From contig JACKNK010000001.1 in the NCBI GenBank assembly GCA_024234955.1, forward strand, positions 212,835 through 276,834: a stretch of 64,000 nucleotides of DNA, read 5' to 3'. A model generated the notes under the pieces. That model was given only the letters and a program-made list of their open reading frames with translations. It was not told the origin of the DNA and made no database searches. This DNA is from Gammaproteobacteria bacterium. Lineage in GTDB: Bacteria > Pseudomonadota > Gammaproteobacteria > JACKNK01. Of this stretch, positions 1,947-58,052 are shown piece after piece. Position 1 is the stretch's first letter; each line of letters begins with the position of its first letter. Made by a program: the position numbers and the translations under genes.

Positions 1947-2546
1947 TTAGGCGACATGCGATACCTGATTGAGAAATGTACGCATAGCTTTTCGGTAACG
2001 AAAGAGCATTGAAAAACCGACAGTCAACTCGTCACCAGCCTGCGGCAAGGGCTCAATGAATGATCTGACTATCTTGATTGATTTGTCGTTCCACACACCT
2101 TGTCCGTGTGTAAGTACGTTTCGTACTGCTACGAGTTCAAAGCAGCCATTTGCTGCCCAGTGATAGCGTTGATCCAACCCTTTCTTGAGCTTCTCGACTT
2201 TTGACTGAGGAAAATTTCCCGCTGTTTCACCCCGTGCGGAAAGCGCTTCATTCATCATTTCATCAAGGATCACAACGAGATCTTGCACCAGCATCTTAAT
2301 TACTTGTCGAGATGTGTCTTCGAAGTGCATTGAAGGATCACGCCTGAAGGTAAGCACCTTCTTCCCCTCGGGGTGCGCTAGAAGAACGGAGTTGTAAGAG
2401 CAGTCTGGTGTCACCCAGGTATGCGCGTCGCGAGCGCGCTGATCCAGACTGGTCAAATCTCCAAACTGTTGTTCCCTCGAGATATGTAGCGAGTGAATCA
2501 GAGTGTAAAGAGTGCTGGTCCAGACGTTGACTCTCTCCCAGTCCAC
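1947..2546 (-). CDS. Hypothetical protein in a low-GC island, with a possible HEPN-like Rx4H motif (RNVLTH).
   Basis: 199-aa ORF in a ~48% GC patch. It points the same way as the next two genes. It contains the RNVLTH motif. Confidence 0.45.
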   Translation of the reverse strand: MDWERVNVWTSTLYTLIHSLHISREQQFGDLTSLDQRARDAHTWVTPDCSYNSVLLAHPEGKKVLTFRRDPSMHFEDTSRQVIKMLVQDLVVILDEMMNEALSARGETAGNFPQSKVEKLKKGLDQRYHWAANGCFELVAVRNVLTHGQGVWNDKSIKIVRSFIEPLPQAGDELTVGFSMLFRYRKAMRTFLNQVSHVA

Positions 2547-2607
2547 TTGGATTTCCTCCTATCAAACATCCTTTTGGATGTTTTCGTGGTAACGGGGGAG
2601 AGCCCCA

Positions 2608-3078
2608 TTACGCACAAACTGGCTCAGATTTTAACTTTTCTTCGACGCGAATTCGGTGGCGATTAGAAAGGATGGCTTTTTGTTGTTCTATATCGAGATA
2701 CCTATAACTCTGTGGTGCTACGAACCCCGACATTGCAATGCGCAGGTGTTCTAGTCTTATCGGCTCGATAGATTCGTAATGCGAAAGTTGAACGGCAAAT
2801 CCTGCATCTTGATCTTGGAAGTAGTGGTCGAAGCGATCACGGGAAAGTCCTACTTTTGCCCTATGACGCGCCCACAACTCCGTTGGCTTATCTACGTCGA
2901 TACTCGCAACGCGAACCCTGCCTAGAATCGCCCCGACAGGCAGGGTTACATACAAATAAATCCATGTTCCTTCAGGTGCATCAGGAAAACGGCGGCGCAG
3001 TTCCACGGTCTTTGATCCGCCGGCGATCTTCTCAGCAAACTCTGGTGCGACAGATAACAAAATTGCACGACCGTTCAT
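2608..3078 (-). CDS. ASCH-domain (PUA-like) protein.
   Basis: 156 aa. The N-terminus ILLSVAPEFAEKIAGGSKTVELRRR resembles ASCH/PUA-like beta-barrel proteins. It overlaps the upstream gene by 4 nt, which suggests an operon. Confidence 0.5.
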   Translation of the reverse strand: MNGRAILLSVAPEFAEKIAGGSKTVELRRRFPDAPEGTWIYLYVTLPVGAILGRVRVASIDVDKPTELWARHRAKVGLSRDRFDHYFQDQDAGFAVQLSHYESIEPIRLEHLRIAMSGFVAPQSYRYLDIEQQKAILSNRHRIRVEEKLKSEPVCA

Positions 3079-5162
3079 GCCAACATCCTCATGCCCTCTT
3101 GGTAGACCTCTGTAAACAGCCCCTCTGGCACACGCAAGGGTCCTGGCACACGATTTTTTGTGCCCATGTGGTCAAGGATTAAGTTTTCTAGCCGTTTCCA
3201 TGGCAACGGACAGACCAGTAGTTCTGTTTTCGCAAAGTGATACGCCTTCAGTTTCGCGGAAGGATCTCCTCCTGCGGCGTCCAAAATATTCTGCCATGTG
3301 TACGCACCGAGACGATGGAATTTTCTCGACAAGCGGGTCGCCTCGTCCGTCTCGGTTCCCAGGCAGAGTGAGACTGCACGGACCTCGCTGACAGGGCTGC
3401 TCACGTACCAGAGGATTCGGCTTCCCTCGGGGATCACAACGTTCGACCGAGAGTAGTAGACGTTTTCTAACGCCAGTGCAGGGTGTTCCGGGACATCAAA
3501 AAAGTCGTTTTCCGCGAGATCACGATCGAACAGCGCGGTTGCCCAGTATTTCTGGATTGGAACGATGTAGGTCGATATGCCAGCTCCAAGGACCTTGAGG
3601 GGCCAGAACATCGCCTCAAGTTCGCGAGGTTCGAGGGCGGCCAGTGTCGACACATCTGGGAAGTGGTCGTTTATAAGGTCAATCGCGCCCGTTACATCAA
3701 CCATCTCTCGTAGGGTCTGGAACACAAGAATTCCATCACGCGAATACTGAAACCCCAGTTCCAGAAGAGCTTCCTGAATATCGCCAGAACCGGGGTCATC
3801 GATCATTACGGAGGTGAGCCCCTGCCTATTCGCAATCTCAATCACATCTGCTAGGGCACGCCGCAAGAGCGTACCGGTCAACGGGCCACTGAGAGTGCGG
3901 AGAAAGCGAAGGCGTAGCGAACTGGGTGGCGACTGATCGACGGCCAGGGCTACTCGCGGATGCTCTCCGCGCACGCCGATTAACTGGACTGTGCATCTGC
4001 TGCACGACGAGAGGGTGGTTCGTATCATCCTCAGCCAAGTCGCTTTGGTTTCTCCAGAAGAGAATCGCTGAAAGGGCAGAAGGTCATGTTCCGTGACGAT
4101 CGACCGTCGCTCAACGCGTGTACCGTTGAGACGAACCGGCGCGTATGTTTGTCCGAGAAAATTCCCTTGTAAACGAGCCACCATGTCGCAAGGACGAAGT
4201 ACGGTTAACCCTGTTACCGTCAGAATGTCGTCCGCATGATCGAGAAGAACTTCATCGCGGGTCGCGAAATATTTGGCACCGTCCAGGGATGCATGGGCGA
4301 GTTGGCGACGGTCGGAAAAGTCAGAGTGGGTAACCGGCGTAGGCATTACGTCACCGATCTCGTCCAGCATCTCGTCTAGCTTGTCAGGATGTCCCGCGAG
4401 TTCTTCGAATCGATGAAAGTATGACAACGCCCGTTGCCGCTTTGCGGGGTCCGGTTGGCGTGAGACTTCATTACGAAGTTCACGGGTTACACAAATTTCG
4501 ACATCATCAAGCCAATCACTTAGTAACCCTCCACTCTCCTCATAGTGTGGGGCGGCAGGATCCATGATGTCGAAAAAGACATTGGCATCGATCGCAATTA
4601 GGCGGGACGGTGCTCCAGGCGCGTCCCGGATAGCTCGCAACAGCGGTGCATCATCTCGATTGACTCGGCGCCACTCAAAAAGTGGCATTGAGTCCGCACC
4701 TCGACCGACTATCTCGTTATCCAAGGCGAACCCGTGTTTCGGCCATAACTGATTTGCAGCCTCGTAGTCTTTGCGGCAACGCAAACGAATCGCGTTGGCG
4801 TCCTTGCTTAGATGAATCAGGTGCCGCAAGAGATTTTCGGAGCAATCAGAACCGCGGTGCTCCTCCGCAACACACAGGTGCACCAAGACGACCTCGCCCC
4901 TGGAGCGTCTCCAAGCTGCGTACCCTAGTAGCTCCTCGTTCCGCGTATGGGCAAGAACACAGCCGGCATGTACGAATTCGTCTAACGCGCCACGCGGAAG
5001 AAAGCCGAGTGTGTTGGAGTTTTTACGGTACAAATCCCACACTTTATCCACCAGGATTGAACCAGGTGGTACCAGGGAAAGCATGCTTTCGGTCATCCCT
5101 GCGAATCCTTTCCTTTCGTATGTGCCAATTAGTACGTAGTCATTCGCTTGGTGGACGAGCAC
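3075..5162 (-). CDS. Multidomain protein: N-terminal GNAT acetyltransferase, a PIN nuclease domain, a second GNAT-like region, and a C-terminal domain of unknown (possibly PUA/EVE-like) fold.
   Basis: 695 aa. The GNAT motif is LVHLCVAEEHRGSDCSENLLRHL. The PIN motif is LIAIDANVFFDIMD. A second acetyltransferase-like stretch reads LTSVMIDDPGSGDIQEALLELGF. GC is low. Confidence 0.55.
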   Translation of the reverse strand: MLVHQANDYVLIGTYERKGFAGMTESMLSLVPPGSILVDKVWDLYRKNSNTLGFLPRGALDEFVHAGCVLAHTRNEELLGYAAWRRSRGEVVLVHLCVAEEHRGSDCSENLLRHLIHLSKDANAIRLRCRKDYEAANQLWPKHGFALDNEIVGRGADSMPLFEWRRVNRDDAPLLRAIRDAPGAPSRLIAIDANVFFDIMDPAAPHYEESGGLLSDWLDDVEICVTRELRNEVSRQPDPAKRQRALSYFHRFEELAGHPDKLDEMLDEIGDVMPTPVTHSDFSDRRQLAHASLDGAKYFATRDEVLLDHADDILTVTGLTVLRPCDMVARLQGNFLGQTYAPVRLNGTRVERRSIVTEHDLLPFQRFSSGETKATWLRMIRTTLSSCSRCTVQLIGVRGEHPRVALAVDQSPPSSLRLRFLRTLSGPLTGTLLRRALADVIEIANRQGLTSVMIDDPGSGDIQEALLELGFQYSRDGILVFQTLREMVDVTGAIDLINDHFPDVSTLAALEPRELEAMFWPLKVLGAGISTYIVPIQKYWATALFDRDLAENDFFDVPEHPALALENVYYSRSNVVIPEGSRILWYVSSPVSEVRAVSLCLGTETDEATRLSRKFHRLGAYTWQNILDAAGGDPSAKLKAYHFAKTELLVCPLPWKRLENLILDHMGTKNRVPGPLRVPEGLFTEVYQEGMRMLA

Positions 5163-5445
5163 TAGAATTCAGCGATCGTTCGGGTGATCACGGCGAAGTG
5201 GCGCTGCCTTGAGCGTTGGAGCACGCTTCGTCCCCGGCTATTTGTAGGGCGTTGCGAGGTTCTCTGACCACATCGTCGTCTGATGAGCGAGTGAGTATGA
5301 TCACGATTCGTTGCTTCCGGACAAAGGTAGCGCAAAGTGATCCGATATATCAGCTGACGCTGTTGTTTTCAGAAAATGCTTAGAGTTACTGGTTGGATCA
5401 GTTCTCGCAGCGTTGTTCTTTTGAGTGCGGACTTTTAACAGAATG

Positions 5446-36721: not shown

Positions 36722-37105
36722 AATCCCGGTGCGAGCCACTGCCACATGTAGGGCCGACCAACGAAGGTCGGCGAGGTGGAGTTATCGGCCCGGCCACCAC
36801 CGGGGATTACGTCAAGCCATCGGCTCCCACGCCAGGGATCAAAAAAGGGAAACGATGGACATGGAGAGTCTCACGGCGAACCGCGCGCAACGTCTCGGAC
36901 TCTGAAGCGTTGCTTACCGGCGAACCGGCGGGATCCCACAATTACCCGTGTGGGACGGGGTGAACCTAGATGGTCTGAATAGTTCCGTTCAGTCAGGCAC
37001 TCCTAGCAAATGAGTGCTGCATATTCGAATCACTATAAAACTAAAACACATATCAAAACTTTTGAGTCACAACATTTTGGTATGTCAACCGTGTTTTATA
37101 ACAAA

Positions 37106-37136
37106 AAAACGCACCAGAATGGTGCGTTTCGATGTT
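37106..37136 (-). terminator. Rho-independent terminator on the minus strand: stem acgcacc/ggtgcgt followed by a T7 run.
   Basis: On the minus strand the sequence reads aaacgcaccattctggtgcgttttttt. Confidence 0.65.
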
Positions 37137-37157
37137 TTCTAACTCTGAAAATCTTGC

Positions 37158-37379
37158 CTAGTCATAAAATCTAGTAATTAGGCTTTTTTTTAATGCCGAT
37201 AATCGCAAACCAACTAAGGCTGTTATCAATGCAGCCAAAGCATTCATAGTTCCGCCAAAGGCGTTAATGATGTTTGCTAGATCGTCGAACGGCATAGTGG
37301 CACTAGGAGTTAGGCCGATAATGGACTTCACGCTATCACTGGAAGGGGCAGGGCGCAATATGCGCCCTGCCAATCCCAT
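37158..37379 (-). CDS. Small hydrophobic ORF in an AT-rich islet. The true start may be the internal MPFDDL at ~37295.
   Basis: The surrounding 36960-37400 stretch is ~35% GC. A strong terminator follows the ORF. A GC hairpin lies at 37347-37369. Confidence 0.3.
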   Translation of the reverse strand: MGLAGRILRPAPSSDSVKSIIGLTPSATMPFDDLANIINAFGGTMNALAALITALVGLRLSALKKSLITRFYD

Positions 37380-39602
37380 TTACGCCACCAACTGCTTGGC
37401 GAGTGCCACCTCGATCGAGTCGCCTTCCGGATTCAAGGCCTCCAGCCCTGTCTCCGGAATGTCCCCCGATGTGCTCTGCGATACCGCGATCTTCTGAGCC
37501 ATCAGCGCTAGGCACGCCTCCTGTGCCGTCCCGGCATAGCCCATGAAGATCACCCGAACAGGTTCCGTCTGTCCGATACGCCAGCTGCGCCGTGCCGCCT
37601 GCTGAACCGTGTACACGTTGTAACCGGTCTGCAGGAACACCACGGTCGGAAACTGGAGCAGGTCCAGGCCCGTCTTCACGAGCTCCGGATTACAGATCAG
37701 GACATCAATGCCCCGGTCCACCTGTTCCAGAATCCAGTCCTCGCGCTTCTCGGTCGAAACCGATGACTTGAGAACCGCTGCCGTCAGGCCCGCCTCGCTG
37801 AGCTGTCGCTTCAGCCGGGTGGTGGTATCTCGGGTACCGGTGTACGTCGTGTACACCAACACCCGCCGCCCGTTGGCTTTCTCCTCGCGGCACAGATCGA
37901 TCAACGCTTCTTCCTTGGGCGTCGGTGTCGCGTCGTCGAAGAGGGCCGGAGCCTTCGCCAAGATCTGCCGCGTGTGCGGATGCTTGACGACTTCCTCTCG
38001 GAAGCAGGTGTCCGGCCAGGCCAACAGCGCGTTCAGGACCACACCCATTAGGCTGTGGTCGCCGGCGCGCAGCGCGTCGTTGAGGTGTGCCTTCAGCGTC
38101 ACGGCGAGCGACGAATAGACGGTCTCCTGGGCCGGCGTCATGTCGAGTTGCTCAAGCTCCTCGTCATACGCCGGCAGGACATCGCCGCCGATCTCCTTCA
38201 GCTTCAGGAACACGGTGATCGGCAGGACCATCCGGACGATGCCGGCGGGTCCGAAGCCCGGTGCCTTCTGCGTGCGCACCGTGATCTTCTTGCCGCGTGA
38301 CGTCTTGTGATCGCCGTTGTTGACCTCGGTGTAGATGTCCTTCAGCACACCATGGGTGCGCATGAAAGCCATCTGAGCCGGTCCCAGGCTGCCCCGATCG
38401 TTGGCACGGAACCCTTCCGCGATCATGCGGCCGGGGTCCATACGCCAGAGCAGGTAGAACAGGTCATCCGCGTAGCCACCCATCAGGGTGCCCGTCAGCA
38501 TCAGAACCTTGCTCGCCTGAGACGCGACGACGCCGAAGGCCTCGCCCTGGGCGGATTGGTTCTTGTACTCGTGACCTTCGTCCACGATGCACAAGCCAAA
38601 CACTCCGCGCAGGTGCCGTTTGATGAACTCGCTGGCCTGGAAGCCACCCTGTCCGAACGAGATTTCCGTTCGGGCCAGGGCGCGCTCCATGCGCAGGGCT
38701 CGCCGGTCGTTGAAGACCAGGTCGCCGTCCTCGTCCATCAGGTTCAGGAAGCCGTAGACGTTGTCCTCCAACATCGTGGCCAGCATGTCTTCGCCAAAGG
38801 CATCGAGCAGCTGACCCGCCGTCTTCGGACCCACGGTCGGTAACGAACACATGGCCTCCTTGACCATGTCGGCACGGGACTTCGAGGCGCCGTCCTGGCG
38901 CTTCAAGGTCCACAACGGTTCATGGCAGGACTGGCATTGCAGCCGTCGATCAGTGGGCACGAACTCCAGCGTCATCGGGTCGTTGTTGTCCAGCTTCTGC
39001 GGCGCACCGCAGCTCGGACAGCACACAACCGGATTCCGCCACCGGGTACCGCCAACGACGCGAGTCGTTACCGGTGCCGGTCGCCAATGGAAGCCGAGCC
39101 GCATCCGGACCCGCCCGAGCACGTAGAAGGTCGGACGGTCGCACGAGGCACCCGCACGCACTTCCGCGCGCAGCCGCAACAGCTTCGCCAGGGTGTCCGG
39201 TCCATTTAGAACCTCCACCCGGGCGCCCGGAACGGTTTCGAGGATCTCGCGCCGCCACTTGTAGACCAGGTGGGGCGGAGAGAGCACCAAGGTGCGGCGA
39301 TAGCCCTCGGCGTGCATCACTGCCGCCGTACAGATGGCCATCATCGTCTTGCCGGTACCCATCTCGGCGTTGATCACGGCGGCACGCTGGTTTTCGTCGA
39401 CCAGGAGCCTTGTTACCGCCTGAACCCGATCCCGCTGAGGCGGGAACGGCTGACGGGAGAGCGCATCGAGGACGCGATCCCGGTCAGGGGCGGTGTGGCC
39501 GTCGAAGATCGGCGGCATTTCCCGGCGCACGGCCTCCAGGAGCCCGGAGCCGAACTCGTTGACGAAGACCTGCAGGGGAATGGGTTGAGCTTGAGTAGTC
39601 AT
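37380..39602 (-). CDS. SNF2-family DNA helicase.
   Basis: 740 aa with a Walker A motif (AEMGTGKTMM), a DEGH box (IVDEGHEYKN) and a Cys cluster. Confidence 0.85.
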   Translation of the reverse strand: MTTQAQPIPLQVFVNEFGSGLLEAVRREMPPIFDGHTAPDRDRVLDALSRQPFPPQRDRVQAVTRLLVDENQRAAVINAEMGTGKTMMAICTAAVMHAEGYRRTLVLSPPHLVYKWRREILETVPGARVEVLNGPDTLAKLLRLRAEVRAGASCDRPTFYVLGRVRMRLGFHWRPAPVTTRVVGGTRWRNPVVCCPSCGAPQKLDNNDPMTLEFVPTDRRLQCQSCHEPLWTLKRQDGASKSRADMVKEAMCSLPTVGPKTAGQLLDAFGEDMLATMLEDNVYGFLNLMDEDGDLVFNDRRALRMERALARTEISFGQGGFQASEFIKRHLRGVFGLCIVDEGHEYKNQSAQGEAFGVVASQASKVLMLTGTLMGGYADDLFYLLWRMDPGRMIAEGFRANDRGSLGPAQMAFMRTHGVLKDIYTEVNNGDHKTSRGKKITVRTQKAPGFGPAGIVRMVLPITVFLKLKEIGGDVLPAYDEELEQLDMTPAQETVYSSLAVTLKAHLNDALRAGDHSLMGVVLNALLAWPDTCFREEVVKHPHTRQILAKAPALFDDATPTPKEEALIDLCREEKANGRRVLVYTTYTGTRDTTTRLKRQLSEAGLTAAVLKSSVSTEKREDWILEQVDRGIDVLICNPELVKTGLDLLQFPTVVFLQTGYNVYTVQQAARRSWRIGQTEPVRVIFMGYAGTAQEACLALMAQKIAVSQSTSGDIPETGLEALNPEGDSIEVALAKQLVA

Positions 39603-46317: not shown

Positions 46318-47130
46318 CTACTGAGCCACCTCCTCATCCGCCGGCTCATCCACCTCGCCGTCGACCTTGAAGTCCATGTCGGAATTCGTCTCGGTGTCCC
46401 GCTCATGTTGAGCCATGGCCATGCCACGGTTAAACACCGGCAGCCGTGGAGGAGCGAAGGGCGCAACGACGGTGCCGGTCAGAATCTCGGATGGAATCTC
46501 GCCATACTTCTCCACTGCCTCACGCGCTCGCTTGGTGTTGTGCTCGAAGTCCGCGTGGGACACACCGGTGAATCGATAGCCCTGCGTCAAGATGAACGCA
46601 TGCCGCACTGCCGAGCTCGCCTCGCCGATCAGGCGATGCGCGCGTTCACGTTCCAGGAAGCCGATATGGGCCAGCGTGCGTACCGTGCGCACATAAGTGT
46701 CGAGATCCTGCAACAGATAGGCGCAACGGAACCCATACGGGTTGTTGAAGCGCAGCGTGATGGTCGCTGGGCGTCTCGTGATACCGGGCTCCGCAGTGAC
46801 ACCCGGCCGCGATGCCATCAGCTTGCGACCGCCTTCAAGCAATTTGGACAGGTACTCGGCTTTCTCGGTCAGGGACTCATGAACCCGTACCAGCATCCAG
46901 TCGGCATACGGATCGCCATCGCGATAGCCGGCAAGGATGTTACGCAGCGCGGCGCCCGCCTGGCGTAGGCCGATGATCCCGTGCTTGCCGGTGTCGTCAT
47001 CGCGCCGGCGACCGTCGACCAACATGAACGCGGTGCGGGTATGCACCACCATCGTGGTCTCGGATACCAGTCCACCGGGCGGATTGTCTGAATGCGGGGC
47101 AACGCCCGCCGTTGCTTGAGGCTCGGTCAT
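46318..47130 (-). CDS. ICE protein, PFL_4669-family-like (TIGR03761/DUF1845-like).
   Basis: 270 aa with an acidic C-terminus. It lies in a conserved backbone position next to the putative origin region. Confidence 0.4.
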   Translation of the reverse strand: MTEPQATAGVAPHSDNPPGGLVSETTMVVHTRTAFMLVDGRRRDDDTGKHGIIGLRQAGAALRNILAGYRDGDPYADWMLVRVHESLTEKAEYLSKLLEGGRKLMASRPGVTAEPGITRRPATITLRFNNPYGFRCAYLLQDLDTYVRTVRTLAHIGFLERERAHRLIGEASSAVRHAFILTQGYRFTGVSHADFEHNTKRAREAVEKYGEIPSEILTGTVVAPFAPPRLPVFNRGMAMAQHERDTETNSDMDFKVDGEVDEPADEEVAQ

Positions 47131-47459
47131 GGCTCAGCTCTTGGTGTGGATGTAGAGCCGGGAACGTACCGATGCGATCAGGAGACACGCGTAAAAGCCC
47201 GTAGTACGGGCTACGCGATTAATTCAAACGAATGCAGGACGGGAGCGTTAGGCGCGCTTGGAGCGCGCCCTGGTGGCGACAAGGATGTCGCCCCTACCTG
47301 GACTCAGCACAGGGATGCGTGCGTGACCAGATCGGAACGGGGTTCGGTCACGGCGCCGAGGTCCGATGCAGCCCGAACCTGACACCCTTCAAAACCATAC
47401 GGCCTGTTGGTTCACGATGACCTGGCAGGAAACACGCCAACGGTACTTATCAGTTGGGA

Positions 47460-47980
47460 AACGGATGCTGTCCAGGGACGGACTCCGAGTAGAAGCGACA
47501 GGATGTCGCGTTCAGGCCGCGTAGCGGGGCGGAACCAAGGAAGGTGAAGGGTAGGCGCGTCCTTGTTTGAAGTCGCGGACTGGGGCGGCTTGAGACAAAT
47601 CCCCATCGAGGTCACCAATGGGAAACTGCTGTCCATGGATGGACGCCTTTCATGCACGGCAGGAAGCCGTGCTTAGGCCGCGAAGCGGGGCGCAGCCAGG
47701 ACGGCGGAGGGTAGGCGCGCGAAGCGCGGTCGAAATTCGCGGTTTTTCCACACGTGAACCGCTTCCAAAAACTACAGGCTTTATATAAAGGTCTGAATAG
47801 GGAGCTACAGGTAGGTACAGGCGGTTCGCTGGAGGCCGCATCTACATTGCCTTTCGGGCCTGTCAGCGGGAGTGATTCTGCGTCAGGGCGGGAGTGATTC
47901 TGCGTAGGACCGGGAGTGATTCTGCGTAGGACCGGGAGTGATTCTGCGTAGGGCCGGGAGCGATTCTGCGCGTACTTCCA
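47460..47980. repeat. Iteron-like repeat region. It has two degenerate ~160-bp direct repeats (47467-47627 and 47628-~47790), an AT-rich core (ttatataaagg) and a DnaA-box-like ttttccaca. Five tandem 22-bp repeats, ccgggagtgattctgcgtagga, span 47867-47976. It is a candidate origin of replication.
   Basis: Repeats were read directly from the sequence. The region is a ~940-bp non-coding gap. Confidence 0.6.
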
Positions 47981-48071
47981 CAGGGTATGCACAGCATATC
48001 CCCAACTACTGAACAAATAGACGCCACCGGCTGCGCCCCGTCGACAGACTGGGTGAGCCGGTTGGCTGAAA

Positions 48072-48851
48072 TTAGAGAAGGCTGGCTTGAGCGCCGAGCT
48101 TTGGCATGTCGTCCCATGTGCGGCCACTCAACAGCCGTCCATTCTTGGACTTGGCTCGCCGCTTACCGTCAGCACCCCAACCACCCCATTGCTTGAAGAA
48201 GAAAAGCACGTGGTCACGGTCGCACTGCCGCTGCACGTTCAAAGCCCATTCCTCATGCATAGGGCGAGCTTTCGGGCCTGATTCACCGCCGACAATCACC
48301 CAATCGATGCCGTTCAGATCGAGCCGGCCGAGATCCTCAAGCAGAGGTTCGACGGACAAGAAGCGGATTGCGGCGTCAACGGTACGAAGGGCATCAATAC
48401 GCGGCAATCCGTGTTTGCGGTTCTCCACGCTGACACCCAGCCAGACGTTCACTGGCGCTTTCCGTGTCGAGAAGTATTCCGCCATCCGCTCTGCGCGTTT
48501 GGTCAGGATCTGATAGGTGTGCTGCGGCGTTTCAGTGATTACCTTGAACACTTGGTCAAGGAATGAGTCTGGGACGTCCTCGTGGAACAGGTCGCTCATC
48601 GAGTTGACGAAGTAAACGGTCGCTTTTTTTCGCTGCCTCGGCTCGTCTAGCCGTTTTGCCAACAGCGTCAGGTTGAAGCCGTTCCCATATCCAGGCGCGC
48701 CCATGGCTTGCAGCCGTCTAGCCATCACTTCGGCGTAACAGTGCTTACAACCAGGAGAAACCTTGGTACAGCCGGTAGTCGGGTTCCAAGTCCTCTCAGT
48801 CCATTCGATTTTTGACTCGGTCCCCATGGGACATCCTCCAGAAGGCCGCAC
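48072..48851 (-). CDS. DUF5131 / phage Gp37-Gp68-family three-Cys-motif protein.
   Basis: It has the N-terminal motif KIEWTERTWNPTTGCTKVSPGCKHCYA (C-x6-C-x2-C). GC is low. Confidence 0.7.
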   Translation of the reverse strand: MRPSGGCPMGTESKIEWTERTWNPTTGCTKVSPGCKHCYAEVMARRLQAMGAPGYGNGFNLTLLAKRLDEPRQRKKATVYFVNSMSDLFHEDVPDSFLDQVFKVITETPQHTYQILTKRAERMAEYFSTRKAPVNVWLGVSVENRKHGLPRIDALRTVDAAIRFLSVEPLLEDLGRLDLNGIDWVIVGGESGPKARPMHEEWALNVQRQCDRDHVLFFFKQWGGWGADGKRRAKSKNGRLLSGRTWDDMPKLGAQASLL

Positions 48852-49111
48852 AACGACTGTACGAATAATCAGTATTATAGTGCTCCTTCACGACCGAAGG
48901 AGCTCATTCACATGCAGATATTGCGGCTGCTCAACCTCAGCCGAAGCAAAACCATGTCTCAAGGTCGCCGCTCTTATAGCCGATCGTAGCTGGCTAACGA
49001 CAGTGCGTACGTTCCACGACTGGTGTTCGCGCAGGGGGCAAGCCTGCACGGTCACGCATACACTTGGCTTTTTTCAGTACGCCGGAACGAGGAGCCGGAA
49101 GGAAACCAAGG

Positions 49112-50269
49112 ATGAAATTACCAGAGCGATACCACCGCCATGAACAGGCCTATGTGAAGCACGAGTTGCTATCCGGCTACCTGGAAGTGCTTCTAATGAT
49201 TATCGGCCAATGGGCGAAGGAAATCGTCTACATCGATTGTTTCGCCGGCCCTTGGTGTGACGATTCCGATGACATCGAGGGAACCTCCATCGCTCGGTCG
49301 ATCGCAATCATGCAGAAGGCTCGAGACAGCCTCGCGTCGGCTGGTAAGTACGTCACCATGCGTGCTTTGTACATTGAGCGTGATGACGATGCCTACACGC
49401 GGTTGCAAAATTACTTGGCAACCAAACGAACGGCTGTTGAAACTCAGTGCCTGAAAGGCGATTTTGTCGAACTCAGAGACCAGATCCTTCAGTGGGCCGG
49501 ATCTCGTGCCTTTGCCTTCTTCTTCGTCGACCCCAAAGGCTATCGCGATGTGGCGCTACCGCATCTACGACCGCTTCTGGAACGACCGCAGAGCGAGTTT
49601 TTGATCAACTTCATGTACTCGTTCGTCAACATGGCCAACTCCGACAAGAACAGGCAAGCATTTTCGAAATACCTTCTGGAGCTGTTCGGAGAAATCCCGG
49701 TGGTTGATGGTCTGTCACCAGTCGAACGCGAGGACCGATTGCTGTCCTTGTACACGGATCGGGTGAAGGATGGTGTGGGTCCAGACGCCAGGGCGACCGC
49801 AGTAAAGGTCTTAGACCCAACCAAGGACCGGACGAAGTATCACCTCGTGTATCTCACGCGCAATCCGCTTGGCATCATCAAGTTCATGGAACAGTCCGAG
49901 CGATGCGCAATCGTCCAGGAGCGTGTGCGCCTCGACGCCAAACTGAGAGCAAAAGAAGAACGTACCGGAACAGGTGATTTATTTGCGGATGACGACGGAG
50001 ACGATTCCGTCTCAACAATGGCTGCAACCGACTTCCAGCAACCGCTCCGAGAACATTGGCTTGGGTGGGTCAGTACGGTTCCCAAAGCGTTCACGAAAGA
50101 AGATTTCGCCTCCATGATCGAGACCACTGGTGCATATCCAAGTCAGATTCAAATGGCATTGGGATCCCTGATCAGTGAAGGTCGAATACAGAATCTCGAT
50201 TCACGCGGTAAGCGAAGAAAGAATTTCGTTCATTTCTCCAAGAACGAACGGCTTGTTCTGTTCCAGTAG
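49112..50269 (+). CDS. tcmP: Three-Cys-motif partner protein TcmP-like. The start is taken at MKLPERYH.
   Basis: It has the motifs HEQAYVKHELLSGYLEVLLMIIG...IDCFAGPW. An SD (aagga) precedes the internal ATG. It is divergent from the DUF5131 gene. Confidence 0.6.
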   Translation: MKLPERYHRHEQAYVKHELLSGYLEVLLMIIGQWAKEIVYIDCFAGPWCDDSDDIEGTSIARSIAIMQKARDSLASAGKYVTMRALYIERDDDAYTRLQNYLATKRTAVETQCLKGDFVELRDQILQWAGSRAFAFFFVDPKGYRDVALPHLRPLLERPQSEFLINFMYSFVNMANSDKNRQAFSKYLLELFGEIPVVDGLSPVEREDRLLSLYTDRVKDGVGPDARATAVKVLDPTKDRTKYHLVYLTRNPLGIIKFMEQSERCAIVQERVRLDAKLRAKEERTGTGDLFADDDGDDSVSTMAATDFQQPLREHWLGWVSTVPKAFTKEDFASMIETTGAYPSQIQMALGSLISEGRIQNLDSRGKRRKNFVHFSKNERLVLFQ

Positions 50270-50401
50270 ACATTAGATGAACCATGTAACATATTGAGTA
50301 CAAAAGAAAATACACAATTGTCTTCTTGACTTTGACTTGGTTGCGGGACTACGGTGATATCAGGAGCCCACCAATAGGGCTTATGGCAGGAGACGACAAT
50401 C

Positions 50402-50638
50402 ATGGATTGGCAGACGATTTTGGTGGATTGGGTGTTGCAAGGCGCGATCGTTATCGGCGTCGTGCGTTTCGTCGTGCTGCCGCTCTATCGCAACGGAGTT
50501 TTTGATCGTATCGGCAATGCGCTACGCAACGCGGATACGAGTGTACCGATCACGGGACACGATGACGGCACTTACGACAGCCTCTCCTTTGAAAAATTTG
50601 ATCGTCTACCTGGTCCAGGAACGATTAGAGAGGATTGA
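50402..50638 (+). CDS. Small membrane protein.
   Basis: 78 aa. An AT-rich promoter region lies upstream and a bidirectional terminator downstream. Confidence 0.4.
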   Translation: MDWQTILVDWVLQGAIVIGVVRFVVLPLYRNGVFDRIGNALRNADTSVPITGHDDGTYDSLSFEKFDRLPGPGTIRED

Positions 50639-50654
50639 GTCCTTGTCCACGCCG

Positions 50655-50692
50655 CTGATCTAATGACTGAGGCCCCTAATAGGGGCCTCAGT
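50655..50692. terminator. Bidirectional rho-independent terminator: perfect hairpin gactgaggcccct-aat-aggggcctcagtc with a T run, between convergent genes.
   Basis: Read from the sequence. Confidence 0.7.
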
Positions 50693-50701
50693 CATTTTGG
50701 C

Positions 50702-52219
50702 CTATGACCCAATGAGCGACGTTCCCTTGCTGCCGGCTTGCTCAGCCAATTGTTGGCCTCCTCGCTCAGTTAGTCGGTTTAGCGCGTCCGTCGTCCTGTG
50801 GCCGGCGATAGCCATCATGTAGCTCCATGCCAGCGGAAAAACGATGTAGAGCGATAGCGTGACCAGGTTGAGCATCATCATCTGGTTGTTCGCTACGTTG
50901 CCGATCCAGTCGTCGACGCTCCATTCATCGTTGAGGCGAGCGATCATTTCGTTGTCGATCCAGTCGGCCAACCGCCACAGAACAGTCCACATACTGATCG
51001 TGAAGTAGGCGAATGAGTAGTTCACAACCGCTTCCCATCCATACCCGGAGAACAGCAAGCCAAAGGGCATCGTCCACACAAGGATGAATAGCAGGAATGC
51101 TTGAATCATCGGGAAAGCAACGATTACTGCGTCCATGGTGAACTCCATGATGGCGTTCATGATCCAGGTTCCGATTACGGTGATTGCACGTTTCCCGGCG
51201 GATGTAAGTAGATCCCAGAGCCCGTCGGTCGCCTTTTCTTGATTAAGGTCCGGTCGTGTTGCAACAGCTCCCGTGTTGTCCAGCAGTGCTCGAACCACAC
51301 TGTCCTCGGCGGCTTCACGGTCAACCAAGGACTGCAACGAGACGCCAAGGCCCCCGAGGATCCCGAGATTGACGCCTTGAGCGTTGGCCTGGGTTAGCAG
51401 CTTCTGCTTCAACCCATGACTGTTGTCGGACCACCATTCGTCACATCGAGGTCGACCGTAATCTGCTGTCACCTGGCCGTTATCGTCGTACCAACTGAAC
51501 GACCAATCACGACGTTCCGTCGTCGCCTGCATACCAGCGCCACATACATTCGGGTTGCTGCATGGCTTGTAGTAGCCGGACGTCTCCAGGAGGACGTGAG
51601 ACCCCATCCAATCGACGTCTTCACCCCATTGGTCGATTGCATCAATGGCTTCGTACTCCGGCCAGGCGCGTCGATCGGCAGGCGCGGCCGCAGGCTTCTC
51701 CTGTTGATACTTGGCCAGCGCCGGCAGATAGCACTGCGAGTAGAACTCGTTGACCTCGGCGCGCAACGCCTGGTCGCGGATATTGATTCCGGAAAGGTTG
51801 TGCAGCACGGCGCGTAAGTCGTCTCCCTCCGGCATCAATGCTTGGCCGGCCGCGACGAAGGCCTCGGAGGTCTTCACGATCAATGCCCACCACATCGGTA
51901 CCTGGACGTGGGTCGGTATATCCCGATTCGAGTTCGACGGGATCGCCTGTCCACTGTTCAAGGTGATCAGTGGCGCCAGGCAGAACAGGATGACGACGAT
52001 CGAGCGGTAGAAGTCGATCTCGATCTGCTGCAACGCCAGCATCGCGCCTGGCTTTATCGGTGAGCTGGCCTTATGGCCTTCCACCCATCCCGAAATGATG
52101 AACACCACGAACGGCAGTAGGTATAGACCGGTTGCGCTGAACAGGTGCCACCAGCCGTTGAATCCATGCCACCCAAAGAGGGCGGTGTAGGCATCAAGGG
52201 CGGAGAGGGATTCGAGCAT
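50702..52219 (-). CDS. TraG N-terminal-domain-like integral membrane conjugation protein.
   Basis: 505 aa with several transmembrane segments at both ends and a large periplasmic loop. Confidence 0.5.
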   Translation of the reverse strand: MLESLSALDAYTALFGWHGFNGWWHLFSATGLYLLPFVVFIISGWVEGHKASSPIKPGAMLALQQIEIDFYRSIVVILFCLAPLITLNSGQAIPSNSNRDIPTHVQVPMWWALIVKTSEAFVAAGQALMPEGDDLRAVLHNLSGINIRDQALRAEVNEFYSQCYLPALAKYQQEKPAAAPADRRAWPEYEAIDAIDQWGEDVDWMGSHVLLETSGYYKPCSNPNVCGAGMQATTERRDWSFSWYDDNGQVTADYGRPRCDEWWSDNSHGLKQKLLTQANAQGVNLGILGGLGVSLQSLVDREAAEDSVVRALLDNTGAVATRPDLNQEKATDGLWDLLTSAGKRAITVIGTWIMNAIMEFTMDAVIVAFPMIQAFLLFILVWTMPFGLLFSGYGWEAVVNYSFAYFTISMWTVLWRLADWIDNEMIARLNDEWSVDDWIGNVANNQMMMLNLVTLSLYIVFPLAWSYMMAIAGHRTTDALNRLTERGGQQLAEQAGSKGTSLIGS

Positions 52220-52331: not shown

Positions 52332-52619
52332 CTACTCCAAACGTTGCTCGGCAGTTTTGTACGCCTGTTCGCCCTCGCGTTTACCGATCGCGACCACGAA
52401 CACGACGACGCGCTGCTCTTGTACCTGGTAGACCAACCGATAGCCCAACTGCTTCAATTTGATCTTGTAGCAATCCGGCAGCCCGCGCAGCCGGTTGGCC
52501 TCGATGCGCGGTGCGTCGAGGACGTGCGCGAGCTTTGTTTTGAATTGACGCTGGATGGTTTCGTCGAGCTTCCGCCACTCCTTCAGTGCGCGGCGGTCGA
52601 ATTCCAGTTCAAAGCTCAT
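52332..52619 (-). CDS. relE: RelE/StbE-family type II toxin.
   Basis: It has the motifs IKLKQLGYRLVYQVQEQRVVVFVVAIGKRE. Confidence 0.85.
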   Translation of the reverse strand: MSFELEFDRRALKEWRKLDETIQRQFKTKLAHVLDAPRIEANRLRGLPDCYKIKLKQLGYRLVYQVQEQRVVVFVVAIGKREGEQAYKTAEQRLE

Positions 52620-52848
52620 CGAGCGTTACACGCACGGCGTCCGGGTTCGCCAATCGCTCCTTGACGATCGCGACCAGCTCCGCGTCTTCCTCGGTCAACA
52701 GAACTTGCTTGAACGGCAATTTTCCTTGCTCGGCGACGTATTCCAAGGTTTGGCGTAGGAGATCGGACGGCGTCACGCCGAGCTTCTCCAGCGCGGCGTA
52801 AGAACGTGCTTTCAAGTCATCGTCCACGCGGATGTTGATCGTGCCCAT
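52609..52848 (-). CDS. relB: RelB/DinJ-family antitoxin.
   Basis: MGTINIRVDDDLKARSYAALEKLGVTPSDLLRQ forms an RHH fold. It lies upstream of the toxin gene and overlaps it. Confidence 0.8.
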   Translation of the reverse strand: MGTINIRVDDDLKARSYAALEKLGVTPSDLLRQTLEYVAEQGKLPFKQVLLTEEDAELVAIVKERLANPDAVRVTLDEL

Positions 52849-52921: not shown

Positions 52922-53878
52922 TCACGCTTCGTCGCACAAATCCCCGAGCACGTCGCGCGCCACCGCCACCAAATCCGGACGGCGTTTGGCCCGATCTGCC
53001 GGCAATCCGATCAGGTTCTGAAAATAGGCCGGATCGAAGGCGATGACTTTCTCAAACAGGACCGGCGCTTTTTCCAGACCGAGCCCCGTGTCGCTGAAGA
53101 CCCTCATTTTCATAGTTTCGATCAGTCCCTGGTCAGCATCCATCGCCTGTGTATGGTGAATAAAGCAGACGCTCAATTGGAAGAAACGCGTGTGCCCATC
53201 GGCATGAACGCGATTGACGATATGGCCGCGGGCATCGATGTTCGCGTCGGGCACCCCGGCCAGAATCGCCTTGCCGAGATCGGAATCCGCGTCGACGCGC
53301 TGATTGAACAGTGACTGGGCATTGCTCATGTAGGCGAAGATCCATGGCACGTTCGTCAACGTTGCGCCGGTATACAGATAGCCCTGCCAGTAACGATAAG
53401 TCGTCAGCATCTTGCGTAGATGTTGGCGGGAGAAACGAACTCCTGTGTCCTTCTCCAGCAGGTAAACGACACGATCGAACTGCTCGATCAACGTCGTCAG
53501 GATTTTCCGCGCGACACCGTCGAGCCGGGCGCGTCGCGACGCGGGATGATGCGGACGTGGCTGGTAGTAAGGGCAGCAACACGCACGGCGTTCGACATCG
53601 AGATCAGCAAGACCCGGAACCGAGTGGTTCGCATGCCGGGCGTAGGGCCGCGTCACGCCTTTCGGCAACTTGTAGAGGCCGATGATCTGGATCGGGTTGT
53701 CGCAGCCAGGGCAAACGGCGTAGGGGGATTGCTCCTGGGGCGAACCCGATTCGGTTTCCGGATACCAGGGCGGGTTCTTGTGCGTACCCGCCTCGAACTC
53801 TTCCTTCGAGATGGTCTGGAACCCGATATCGCTTTGATGCAGCTTGTAAACGTCCATGTCGTTGCGTGTCCCGCTCAT
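52922..53878 (-). CDS. Cys-rich hypothetical protein (CPGC and CCC motifs).
   Basis: 318 aa. It has no family I recognise. Confidence 0.4.
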   Translation of the reverse strand: MSGTRNDMDVYKLHQSDIGFQTISKEEFEAGTHKNPPWYPETESGSPQEQSPYAVCPGCDNPIQIIGLYKLPKGVTRPYARHANHSVPGLADLDVERRACCCPYYQPRPHHPASRRARLDGVARKILTTLIEQFDRVVYLLEKDTGVRFSRQHLRKMLTTYRYWQGYLYTGATLTNVPWIFAYMSNAQSLFNQRVDADSDLGKAILAGVPDANIDARGHIVNRVHADGHTRFFQLSVCFIHHTQAMDADQGLIETMKMRVFSDTGLGLEKAPVLFEKVIAFDPAYFQNLIGLPADRAKRRPDLVAVARDVLGDLCDEA

Positions 53879-56855: not shown

Positions 56856-57115
56856 AATGACCATGGGGTGGGGGCACGGTCCTCGTGTTCGTTTCCGCAA
56901 AGCTCGCCATCGAGCAACGGTAACGTTCAAGCGAACGATGGCCCCTTTGGTGGTGGCCACTCCGAGAGTGGCTCACTACCCGTCGGCCCACGCACCGGTG
57001 CCGACTTACCGGAGCGACCCCTCTGAGCACCCTTGGCCGGGGTGTACAGAGCGTTGCCACGACGTTTCGTGGTGCTTGAGCGGCGACGTCGCCGTGCCCC
57101 CACCCCATGGTCATT
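56856..57115. repeat. Perfect 24-bp inverted repeats, aatgaccatggggtgggggcacgg / ccgtgcccccaccccatggtcatt, flanking a ~212-bp non-coding segment. Its structure is MITE-like.
   Basis: The arms at 56856-56879 and 57092-57115 were read directly. The right arm overlaps the stop of the RepA-like gene. Confidence 0.7.
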
Positions 57116-58052
57116 TCTTTGTTTTGTTCTTTACGTTCACCGGCCTTACATGCGTCCGTGACGGATAGAGCCGTAGGTATTCTGCGTCGTGGTCGACACG
57201 CGCTTGGGGAAACACCTGAAGGACGTGCTTGAGGTTTGGGATGAAGCCCTTGTTCCTGAAGTCACGTAAGCCCTGAGTGGTGTCGGGATAGCCGGCCCCG
57301 AACTGCTTTTGCAGGTAGATCCAGGGGATCGGCGTTGGTCGCCGTAAGTACGAGAACCGATGTGTGAGCCAGCAGTAGATGTCCATGGCCATCGAGGAGC
57401 CACGCAGCGCGTGCATGGCTTGAAGGCTGATCGGAATTGGTGCGGCGGTTACTTCCTCGAAGAAGTTCTCAGAGAGCTTTACGGAGGACTGACCTAAGCC
57501 AAGCTGGTTGGGGTTGTCCGGATCCCACCAAAGGCTGACGTCATCGGTGATGTCGCATTTGCGCTGTGAGAAGGCCTTCCCATCGTCGTAGATGATCCGG
57601 ATCGATGCCGTGAACAATTTGATCGACTGGTCACGCACGACTCGAATCGTGCCGCGTTGGCCCCCCGTCATGTGATCGATGCCGATGTTGGCCAGGTAAT
57701 CACCGAACGTGGCGCCGAGGCCGATCCATCGCTCCTTGGTTTCGACCGCGCGCGTCGTCAACCAAGCGAGGATCAGTCGCGGCTTTGGCCCGTAGGGCAG
57801 GCCGTATCGCGGATCGGAGCTCACCACGACTCGTAGATGGCCATTCGCACGTTCGTGGGAGTAGGCACGGGTGCGTGCGTGGGGCAGGGTCGCACGGGCC
57901 AGTGTCTGAGCCATGTATCCGACCGCGCCGGCGGCGCGGGCTTCTTCGGTCTCCTGTCCCAACGCCTCCTCATACAGCAGATCGAGCGAGGCTTGCTGGC
58001 TCGCCTGCTCGGTCGCGGACAGATCGTTATCCAAGGCGTGACGTGAACTCAT
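57111..58052 (-). CDS. Conserved ICE protein, possibly a replication-initiator-like (RepA/RPA-family) protein.
   Basis: 313 aa. It is located between parB-like and topB, as in related ICEs. The family assignment comes from memory of the element layout, not from a motif. Confidence 0.35.
   Translation of the reverse strand: MSSRHALDNDLSATEQASQQASLDLLYEEALGQETEEARAAGAVGYMAQTLARATLPHARTRAYSHERANGHLRVVVSSDPRYGLPYGPKPRLILAWLTTRAVETKERWIGLGATFGDYLANIGIDHMTGGQRGTIRVVRDQSIKLFTASIRIIYDDGKAFSQRKCDITDDVSLWWDPDNPNQLGLGQSSVKLSENFFEEVTAAPIPISLQAMHALRGSSMAMDIYCWLTHRFSYLRRPTPIPWIYLQKQFGAGYPDTTQGLRDFRNKGFIPNLKHVLQVFPQARVDHDAEYLRLYPSRTHVRPVNVKNKTKK

Follow-up and report, generated by a model that had tools for sequence, protein, structure and literature searches.

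The DUF5131-TcmP locus

This study concerns two head-to-head genes, encoding a DUF5131 protein of the phage Gp37/Gp68 family and TcmP (three-Cys-motif partner protein), that lie at positions 48072-50269 of a DNA stretch of 64,000 nucleotides from a gammaproteobacterium (lineage JACKNK01; assembly GCA_024234955.1, contig JACKNK010000001.1, positions 212,835 to 276,834 of the forward strand). The whole stretch that was analysed is called the window. In the interval pointed out by a previous sequence-only reading of the window, both open reading frames (ORFs) are intact, extending from 48072 to 48851 on the minus strand and from 49064 to 50269 on the plus strand. The probable true starts are the ATG codons at 48827 (MGTESKIEW) and 49112 (MKLPERY), which coincide with the gene calls of an independent ENA assembly containing this element; they define a DUF5131 coding sequence of 251 aa (48072..48827, minus strand) and a TcmP coding sequence of 385 aa (49112..50269, plus strand). 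The divergent promoter spacer left between them, read directly from the sequence, measures 284 bp (48828..49111), and its conservation in sister loci is limited to both ends.

The window belongs to a genuine integrative and conjugative element (ICE) of the PFGI-1/pKLC102 type. In fact, markers of PFGI-1/pKLC102/ICEclc-type elements were found above their cutoffs, namely traC_PFL_4706 (852 bits), conj_TOL_TraD (830 bits), TIGR03752, TIGR03759 and ICE_PFGI_1_parB. The GC content of the pair, given earlier as about 50%, is 54.1% when measured, compared with a mean of 60.8% for the window (z=-2.1; values this low are found in 5% of stretches of equal size), and the GC content at third codon positions is 61-66% in the pair vs 72-80% in the ICE backbone genes. 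The pair is thus compositionally foreign and represents acquired ICE cargo, as had been proposed.

The DUF5131 protein

The DUF5131 protein matches the Pfam profile PF07505 over its entire length (positions 1-243 of 243) with 367.9 bits, against a gathering threshold of 28.9 (E=2.9e-110). The cysteine motif pointed out in the sequence-only reading is present as G-C-TKVSPG-C-KH-C (Cx6Cx2C) and is invariant in the family: C20, C27 and C30, together with C202, are found in all members of an alignment of 32 DUF5131 sequences including that of the window, with a mean column identity of 76%. The conservation of these proteins is extreme, the best 120 homologues being 70-100% identical and proteins from different phyla still 70-75% identical; the homologue search gave at least 8,000 candidates.

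The AlphaFold model (pLDDT 77.7) describes a compact partial TIM barrel of the radical S-adenosylmethionine (SAM) fold, whose closest structural match is spore photoproduct lyase (SPL) and whose second-best match is viperin. The conserved and basic C-terminal 35 residues are not modelled, and this tail may become ordered on the partner protein or on nucleic acid. As judged from the model, DUF5131 is a radical-SAM enzyme, predicted to bind a [4Fe-4S] cluster and to cleave SAM reductively. RadicalSAM.org lists DUF5131 as Megacluster-5-2, neighbouring SPL at 5-3. The invariant GGESG of the family was considered as the canonical radical-SAM GGE motif and rejected, since it is located after a late strand (residues 176-179) and not after beta-2. 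Searches of the PDB by sequence and profile returned no solved structure for the DUF5131 or the TcmP family.

The likeness to SPL/SplB (COG1533), an SOS-regulated radical-SAM DNA repair enzyme, is one of predicted fold, and lyase activity is a feature of SPL. DUF5131 is only 15% identical to 4fhc, is shorter (251 aa vs 340 aa), has a Cx6Cx2C instead of a Cx3Cx2C motif and requires, or in any case is accompanied by, a partner with a methyltransferase fold, which SPL does without; furthermore, a profile search of the PDB found no sequence match, and the protein falls outside the SPL family. A different kinship is indicated by the profile TIGR04471 (rSAM_mob_pairA), which DUF5131 fails (93.9 bits vs an equivalog cutoff of 355): the sub-threshold match to this pair protein A points to a related radical-SAM clade. 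In the 'radical SAM mobile pair' TIGR04471/TIGR04470 the partner is, by family name, 'mobile pair protein B', which we take to be a second radical-SAM enzyme, whereas the partner in the window is a methyltransferase-fold protein.

The TcmP protein

Of the TIGR04471/TIGR04474-type assignments that had been expected for the two proteins, the second does hold, since TcmP passes the NCBIfam profile TIGR04474 with 110.9 bits against a curated cutoff of 53. The pair therefore passes both HMMs (hidden Markov models) of the TIGR04474 TcmP and PF07505 three-Cys-motif pair and, with adjacent genes and the Cx6Cx2C motif, shows no difference in membership; only its orientation is atypical. The TcmP model (pLDDT 88.4) comprises a seven-stranded class I SAM-methyltransferase fold (residues ~1-285) into which a helical region is inserted, followed by a disordered linker and, at the C-terminus, by a winged helix of the GMT type. 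This last domain, found in 30 of 32 relatives and sub-threshold (21 bits) in the window protein, is of a kind typical of DNA binding.

The methyltransferase domain is structurally similar to RlmJ/DUF519, the 23S rRNA m6A2030 methyltransferase. A comparison by eye of motif order and predicted strands, not a superposition, places the invariant residues of TcmP in the same order as the experimentally important residues of RlmJ: Y4 of RlmJ would correspond to Y7 of TcmP, K18-H19 (motif X) to K16-H17, D40/H42 to D42-C-F44-x-G46, E118 to E89 at the end of strand 2, D143-G-F145 to G116-D-F118, and D164-P-P-Y (motif IV) to D140-P141-x-G143-(W/Y)144. TcmP differs from RlmJ in its motif IV (DPxG[WY] vs DPPY), in an invariant Cys in motif I and in the additional winged helix, and the two share no detectable sequence homology: hhalign of TcmP against E. 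coli RlmJ found nothing (probability 0.1), and a Pfam weak-hit scan of 32 TcmP family members returned only GMT-wHTH and no RlmJ family match even at E<=5. The TcmP family counts 3,281 representative clusters at E<=1e-3, no fusion (Rosetta-stone) protein was found among its top 150 representatives, and a viral fold library searched with TcmP gave generic methyltransferases only (TM score <= 0.35).

From these predicted structures it is firmly supported that the module joins two partners, namely a radical-SAM enzyme and a winged-helix protein with an RlmJ-like methyltransferase fold. The structure prediction suggested in the sequence-only reading, radical-SAM-like versus methyltransferase-like, has therefore assigned one fold to each protein, and both predicted folds point to nucleic-acid chemistry.

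Linkage and distribution of the pair

A genome scan with the TcmP profile gave 80 loci (designated here by L numbers, together with further sister and phage loci). In 76 of them DUF5131 and TcmP are no more than 4.4 kb apart, and the remaining four reach a contig end, in accordance with the recurrent two-gene module described earlier. In the main layout TcmP is followed directly by DUF5131. The stop and start codons overlap as ATGA in 31 of 39 co-directional pairs, and therefore the two genes appear to be translationally coupled, which in turn implies a complex of TcmP and DUF5131. Across 741 locus pairs the median identity is 71% for DUF5131 and 54% for TcmP, and the two identities co-vary (r=0.63), which fits co-inheritance with a more constrained catalytic subunit. 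That the two proteins are co-inherited and usually co-translated is firmly supported by these comparisons of gene order and sequence. The extra gene present in other layouts is a second TcmP paralogue, a LexA-like gene or an MmeI-like gene. The second paralogue is longer (~425-465 aa), also carries GMT-wHTH and is located between or beside TcmP and DUF5131 in L019, L020, L028, L033, L046, L050, L064, L066, L076 and others; the window has one TcmP only.

The head-to-head layout occurs in none of the 80 genome loci and is kept in the window's own subclade, formed by L097 and L098/L102. The TcmP of L097, 91% identical to that of the window, occupies the same slot beside TraG_N in a sister ICE, and those of L098 and L102 are 86% and 79% identical. 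DNA homology to L098 extends over both coding regions and a short block of the promoter only, with unrelated flanks, and therefore the mobile unit would consist of the two genes. Insertion boundaries were deduced from the DNA homology to L098 and L097. As for a sister ICE devoid of the pair (an empty site), exact-protein look-ups gave the same element only, a metagenome scan with AcaB gave one short and distant contig, and the plasmid TraG_N relatives are only ~27% identical; near-identical DNA in plasmids amounted to a 36-bp match at most.

The occurrence on mobile elements and in phages, also claimed previously, applies to the phages for DUF5131 and hardly for the pair: DUF5131 is present in 181 phage records and TcmP in only five, from three Gordonia phages. 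In Gordonia phage Easley the pair is located between the integrase and the immunity repressor, and its TcmP (gp39, labelled 'methyltransferase') carries the GMT winged helix. Gene 38 of the same phage (L083 3992-4747), labelled 'hypothetical', is 50% identical to the window DUF5131 (E=1e-72), while gene 21 of Mycobacterium phage prophiGD53-3 (L084 4001-5002), labelled 'RNA methyltransferase', is a DUF5131 protein (E=8e-101). The public annotations of prophiGD53-3 gp21 and Easley gp38/gp39 are thus misleading. The solo DUF5131 proteins of phages are longer and are located in early or replication regions, with a DNA methyltransferase within ~2 kb in 3 of 6 sampled contexts.

Association with LexA-like genes and SOS boxes

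The genomic neighbourhood survey proposed earlier was carried out on the 80 loci and covered 127 nearest flanking proteins. Peptidase_S24 is the sole strongly recurrent family among them, with 19 of 127 nearest neighbours. These are LexA/UmuD-type repressors, three of which score above the LexA equivalog cutoff, and such LexA-like genes are present in 22 of the 80 loci; Thiodiazotropha has a tight LexA, TcmP, DUF5131 operon, in this order. A LexA-like gene leading a small accessory operon, as in some of these loci, is also the arrangement of lexA-imuA-imuB-dnaE2. The enzymes of that cassette and of umuDC/rumAB are entirely different from those of the module, which has no polymerase; cassettes of the umuDC/rumAB type are sporadic and are carried by mobile elements and ICEs, and in this respect they offer an analogy.

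The LexA-like neighbours have putative palindromic operators of their own at their start codons. In a Burkholderiales group the LexA-like gene that accompanies the module has a palindrome, TGATTTCG-TCA-CGAAATCA, overlapping its start codon (L019, L022, L024, L037, L039, L045, L047, L048 and L069, at about locus position 5270-5300), which is a candidate non-canonical operator of a dedicated LexA paralogue. Palindromes associated with the LexA-like genes elsewhere are TGTACG-TT-CGTACA in L038 and L042 and GAAC-N4-GTTC in L058 and L059. Upstream of the LexA-like genes, a search for the canonical SOS box found none.

Some loci without a LexA-like gene carry an exact box, defined as CTGT-N8-ACAG, the accepted SOS box of most Betaproteobacteria, upstream of DUF5131: CTGTATATTTATACAG in L046, CTGTATATAAATACAG in L050, TACTGTATATACATACAGTA in L066 and TACTGTTTGCTTATACAGTA in the sister locus L103, whose DUF5131 is 77% identical to that of the window and whose box has the same position as the window box. 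L064 carries a CTGA...ACAG variant. Such exact sites are rare (only 14 in 1.06 Mb of loci), and the three observed in the ~19 kb upstream of DUF5131 genes compare with ~0.25 expected, corresponding to a Poisson P of ~0.002 as derived from the 14-site density. An exact box at position 4128 of L038 was discounted, being located inside a coding region. A small DUF6471 protein is encoded just upstream of the SOS box in L046, L050 and L064.

In the window, an SOS (LexA) box-like palindrome, CTGATTATTCGTACAG, one mismatch away from CTGT-N8-ACAG, is located at 48857..48872 on the DUF5131 (minus) strand, 29 nt upstream of the DUF5131 ATG, and is the sole such site in the spacer vs ~0.07 expected. A perfect -10 hexamer of the DUF5131 gene, TATAAT (48874..48879, minus strand), lies one base upstream of it, so that this strand reads CTATAAT-A-CTGATTATTCGTACAG over 48857-48880. 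The box and the TATAAT block are conserved in L097 and L098/L102, CTATAAT being invariant in the three sister spacers, while the mid-spacer has diverged beyond alignment and the homology to L098 stops exactly at 48881. LexA may therefore bind at 48857-48872, as far as can be deduced from the sequence. On the whole, the module appears to have been recruited repeatedly and independently to SOS, or DNA-damage-responsive, control. A precedent exists in the SPL-like radical-SAM gene splB, which is LexA-regulated in Actinobacteria, Alpha-, Beta- and Gammaproteobacteria and Verrucomicrobia. The role in nucleic-acid modification or defence suggested by the sequence-only reading had overlooked this link, which makes a role in the DNA-damage response at least as likely as defence.

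Previous cataloguing of the module

The pair had been treated as uncatalogued. In fact, DUF5131 matches the PADLOC models PDC-M30B (381.9 bits) and PDC-M41B, both at about 380 bits, and TcmP matches PDC-M30A (42.7 bits, E=9.1e-12). PDC-M30 and PDC-M41 belong to a set of 145 phage defence candidates (PDC) drawn from genes found inside BREX, DISARM and type I restriction-modification loci and declared untested by their authors; both are co-directional cassettes sharing one DUF5131 family, PDC-M30 being FAM_02577>>FAM_00989 (Payne et al., bioRxiv 10.1101/2024.01.29.577857). The two families are the same as in the window pair, while the cassettes are arranged A>>B and the window genes are head-to-head; the PDC label denotes a candidate and assigns no function. 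A full-text literature search for functional work on DUF5131, TcmP, Gp37Gp68 or GMT-wHTH gave annotations only, in addition to the radical-SAM subgroup listing beside SPL, in line with the earlier statement that the module has no assigned biochemical function. The window locus thus joins, as a member, a pair that is already catalogued, both as a partner pair and as a PADLOC candidate, but uncharacterised.

Proposed function and alternative explanations

The best reading of these data, to which we would give a probability of about 0.4, is that of a DNA-damage-inducible, DNA-directed radical-SAM system for lesion reversal or base modification. TcmP and DUF5131 would form a complex in which TcmP binds DNA and presents, by flipping, a target base or lesion, and DUF5131, as the catalytic radical-SAM subunit, alters or reverses the target with a 5'-deoxyadenosyl radical. 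DUF5131 would be transcribed from the promoter whose -10 abuts the LexA-type operator, and hence induced by DNA damage. This reading was rated as the most likely on four grounds: the fold resembling that of SPL, the precedent of splB, the very high conservation and the architecture of the LexA-led cassettes. A narrower version, somewhat doubtful in our view, sees an SOS-inducible and oxygen-independent DNA repair or editing pathway carried by mobile elements, in which the RlmJ-like protein flips a damaged or alkylated base and the SPL-like enzyme reverses or rewrites the lesion.

Several points weigh against a DNA-damage-inducible system. Confidence in the DUF5131 model is only moderate (pLDDT 77.7), and the conserved C-terminal 35 residues are missing from it; the relationship between TcmP and RlmJ is structural only, based on predicted structure and motif order, and the closest solved methyltransferases to TcmP act on RNA, not on DNA. 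As regards regulation, the window box has one core mismatch (CTGA) and is a candidate LexA site, TcmP lies ~235 bp from it and may escape LexA control and, more generally, DNA-damage-responsive regulators also control bona fide defence systems. Moreover, restriction-modification, BREX-like and helicase genes surround the module often enough to have made it a PADLOC candidate, and the Easley pair is part of a lysogeny module, where prophages usually keep their defence genes.

Since damage-responsive regulators also run defence systems, SOS control is compatible with an anti-phage role as well, which we regard as a serious alternative, though a less likely one. In such a system, corresponding to PDC-M30, TcmP would sense or mark nucleic acid, the DUF5131 effector would either make a toxic or chain-terminating nucleotide, like viperin (the second-best structural match), or damage the invading DNA, and the damage caused by infection would raise expression. 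Both proteins match the PDC-M30 models, whose candidates were defined by their embedding in defence loci, and the nearest flanks of the module (n=127) include Type III methyltransferase (6), ResIII (6), SNF2 helicase (5) and MmeI-like (3) genes, with a YhcG nuclease also among the neighbours. Individual loci point in the same direction: genes for an Eco57I-like methyltransferase and a XamI endonuclease come after the L098 pair, L104 and L105 lie beside an integrase, a type I S subunit and an M78 peptidase, a TcmP gene adjoins Hna in S. meliloti, the slot downstream of TraG_N is occupied in distant MPF_G (mating-pair formation type G) elements by AbiE or type II restriction-modification, and the position of the Easley pair has already been mentioned. 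However, restriction-modification or helicase genes make up only ~15% of the genes nearest the module; apart from Peptidase_S24, the remaining flanks are singletons, many of them housekeeping, and unrelated or housekeeping genes form the majority of the nearest neighbours, so that the defence part of the earlier proposal rests on context, while its nucleic-acid part agrees with the predicted folds. The PDC list is explicitly untested, and the divergent genes of the window do not match the co-directional PDC-M30 cassette. An identity of 70-75% for DUF5131 and ~54% for TcmP across phyla is, in our experience, unusually high for arms-race genes, and the frequency of solo DUF5131 in early or replication regions of phages would be odd for a host-defence effector. 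A constitutive restriction-like defence, in particular, is less likely than damage-inducible DNA processing.

An SOS-type control would also time expression to the induction of the element, an event linked to the SOS response in many elements, as expected if the module hypermodified ICE or phage DNA, marking it as self and allowing it to escape restriction in the next host. The amino-methyltransferase-like pocket and winged helix of TcmP, the location of the module on ICEs, in prophages and beside integrases, the DNA methyltransferases near solo phage DUF5131 genes and the presence of SSB, HU and RadC in the ICE region that holds the pair would all suit such an anti-restriction role. Nevertheless, we consider it unlikely: many loci are chromosomal without visible mobile-element genes adjoining, TcmP is hardly represented among sequenced phages or in the viral structure library, and its motif IV is DPxG[WY] and not DPPY, methyl transfer being itself a prediction. 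Still less probable is that TcmP and DUF5131 modify a nucleotide of rRNA or tRNA, in the manner of RlmJ, Trm1, RlmN or Cfr, and thereby change translation under stress. What speaks for DNA is the SOS link, together with the restriction-modification and mobile-element surroundings of the module; in addition, a DNA lyase gives the best radical-SAM match, the winged helix of TcmP is of a DNA-binding type, and the active site of RlmJ itself is described as DNA-m6A-methyltransferase-like.

Other features of the host element

The ICE genes flanking the pair are DUF3577, CsrA, HU, SSB and AcaB on one side and TraG_N, RelB/ParE and topoisomerase III on the other. Directly downstream of the DUF5131 stop codon, a consensus scan detected a terminator-like hairpin with a T-rich tail (48019..48038, minus strand), in a region where the number of such hairpins is not above shuffle expectation. 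Beyond TcmP lies a 78-aa ORF with a hydrophobic N-terminus (50402..50638, plus strand), in the lowest-GC part of the patch (segment GC 49.5%); it has no family match, shares 39% identity with the ORF that occupies this position in the sister ICE L097, and may be part of the cargo. A perfect 17-bp inverted repeat resembling a bidirectional terminator (50662..50696), detected by the repeat finder, separates the cargo patch from the TraG_N gene. In two distant MPF_G conjugative elements, L090 (P. veronii plasmid CP039632) and L091 (Stutzerimonas plasmid CP076684), the slot after TraG_N is filled by an AbiEi/AbiEii pair or by an N6-methylase with a BsuBI/PstI endonuclease, which suggests that this position, comparable to that of the window pair, is a cargo hotspot.

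Five tandem 22-bp repeats (47867-47976; consensus CGGGAGTGATTCTGCGTAGGAC, 77-100% identity by the repeat finder) lie 96 bp past the stop codon of DUF5131, at a distance of ~740 bp from AcaB; they make up the putative origin of the sequence-only reading. These repeats resemble iterons and are candidates for an origin, a partition site or activator-binding sites; a RepA_C protein is encoded by the ICE at 57111-58052. In the non-coding stretch between AcaB and these repeats, a unit of ~95 nt is present in two copies (47466-47560 and 47627-47720; 160 nt apart, 76-86% identical), each with a short GC-rich hairpin whose stems differ (CGACAGGATGTCG vs ACGGCAGGAAGCCGT), and a hairpin similar to these is found near 47276-47293. 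An Rfam scan across 46900-50900 gave no match, and the RNA folding of the paired ~95-nt repeats was not significant (z about -1.5).

Immediately upstream of TraG_N, a RelB antitoxin/ParE-family toxin pair (52332-52848) is probably an ICE maintenance module. It is followed, before topoisomerase III, by a Cys-rich protein of 318 aa (52922-53878; CPGC, CCCPYY) that has no Pfam match and is also gene-called in the independent assembly L081. Other low-GC stretches (0.49-0.55) are found at 2001-5000, overlapping a 695-aa ORF with at most a weak acetyltransferase-like match, and at 37001-38000, overlapping the 3' part of an SNF2-type helicase gene, and suggest further acquired cargo.

Significance

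The structural assignments, the evidence for coupling and, above all, the SOS connection are the new elements of this analysis. DUF5131 is a very widespread radical-SAM subgroup without a known reaction, with a dedicated partner, TcmP, of ~3,300 representative clusters, and the handles for testing it are now the predicted RlmJ-like, base-flipping partner with a DNA-binding domain, the translational coupling and the repeated SOS recruitment. Either a repair or a defence outcome would correct annotations that now range from 'hypothetical' and 'phage protein' to 'RNA methyltransferase'. If the module is a defence system, it would be an unusually conserved and damage-induced one. If the pair instead repairs or modifies DNA under damage, it would bring a new radical-SAM chemistry into the SOS response and explain its carriage by ICEs and phages, and the narrower repair or editing pathway would represent a split and guided counterpart of spore photoproduct lyase or AlkB.

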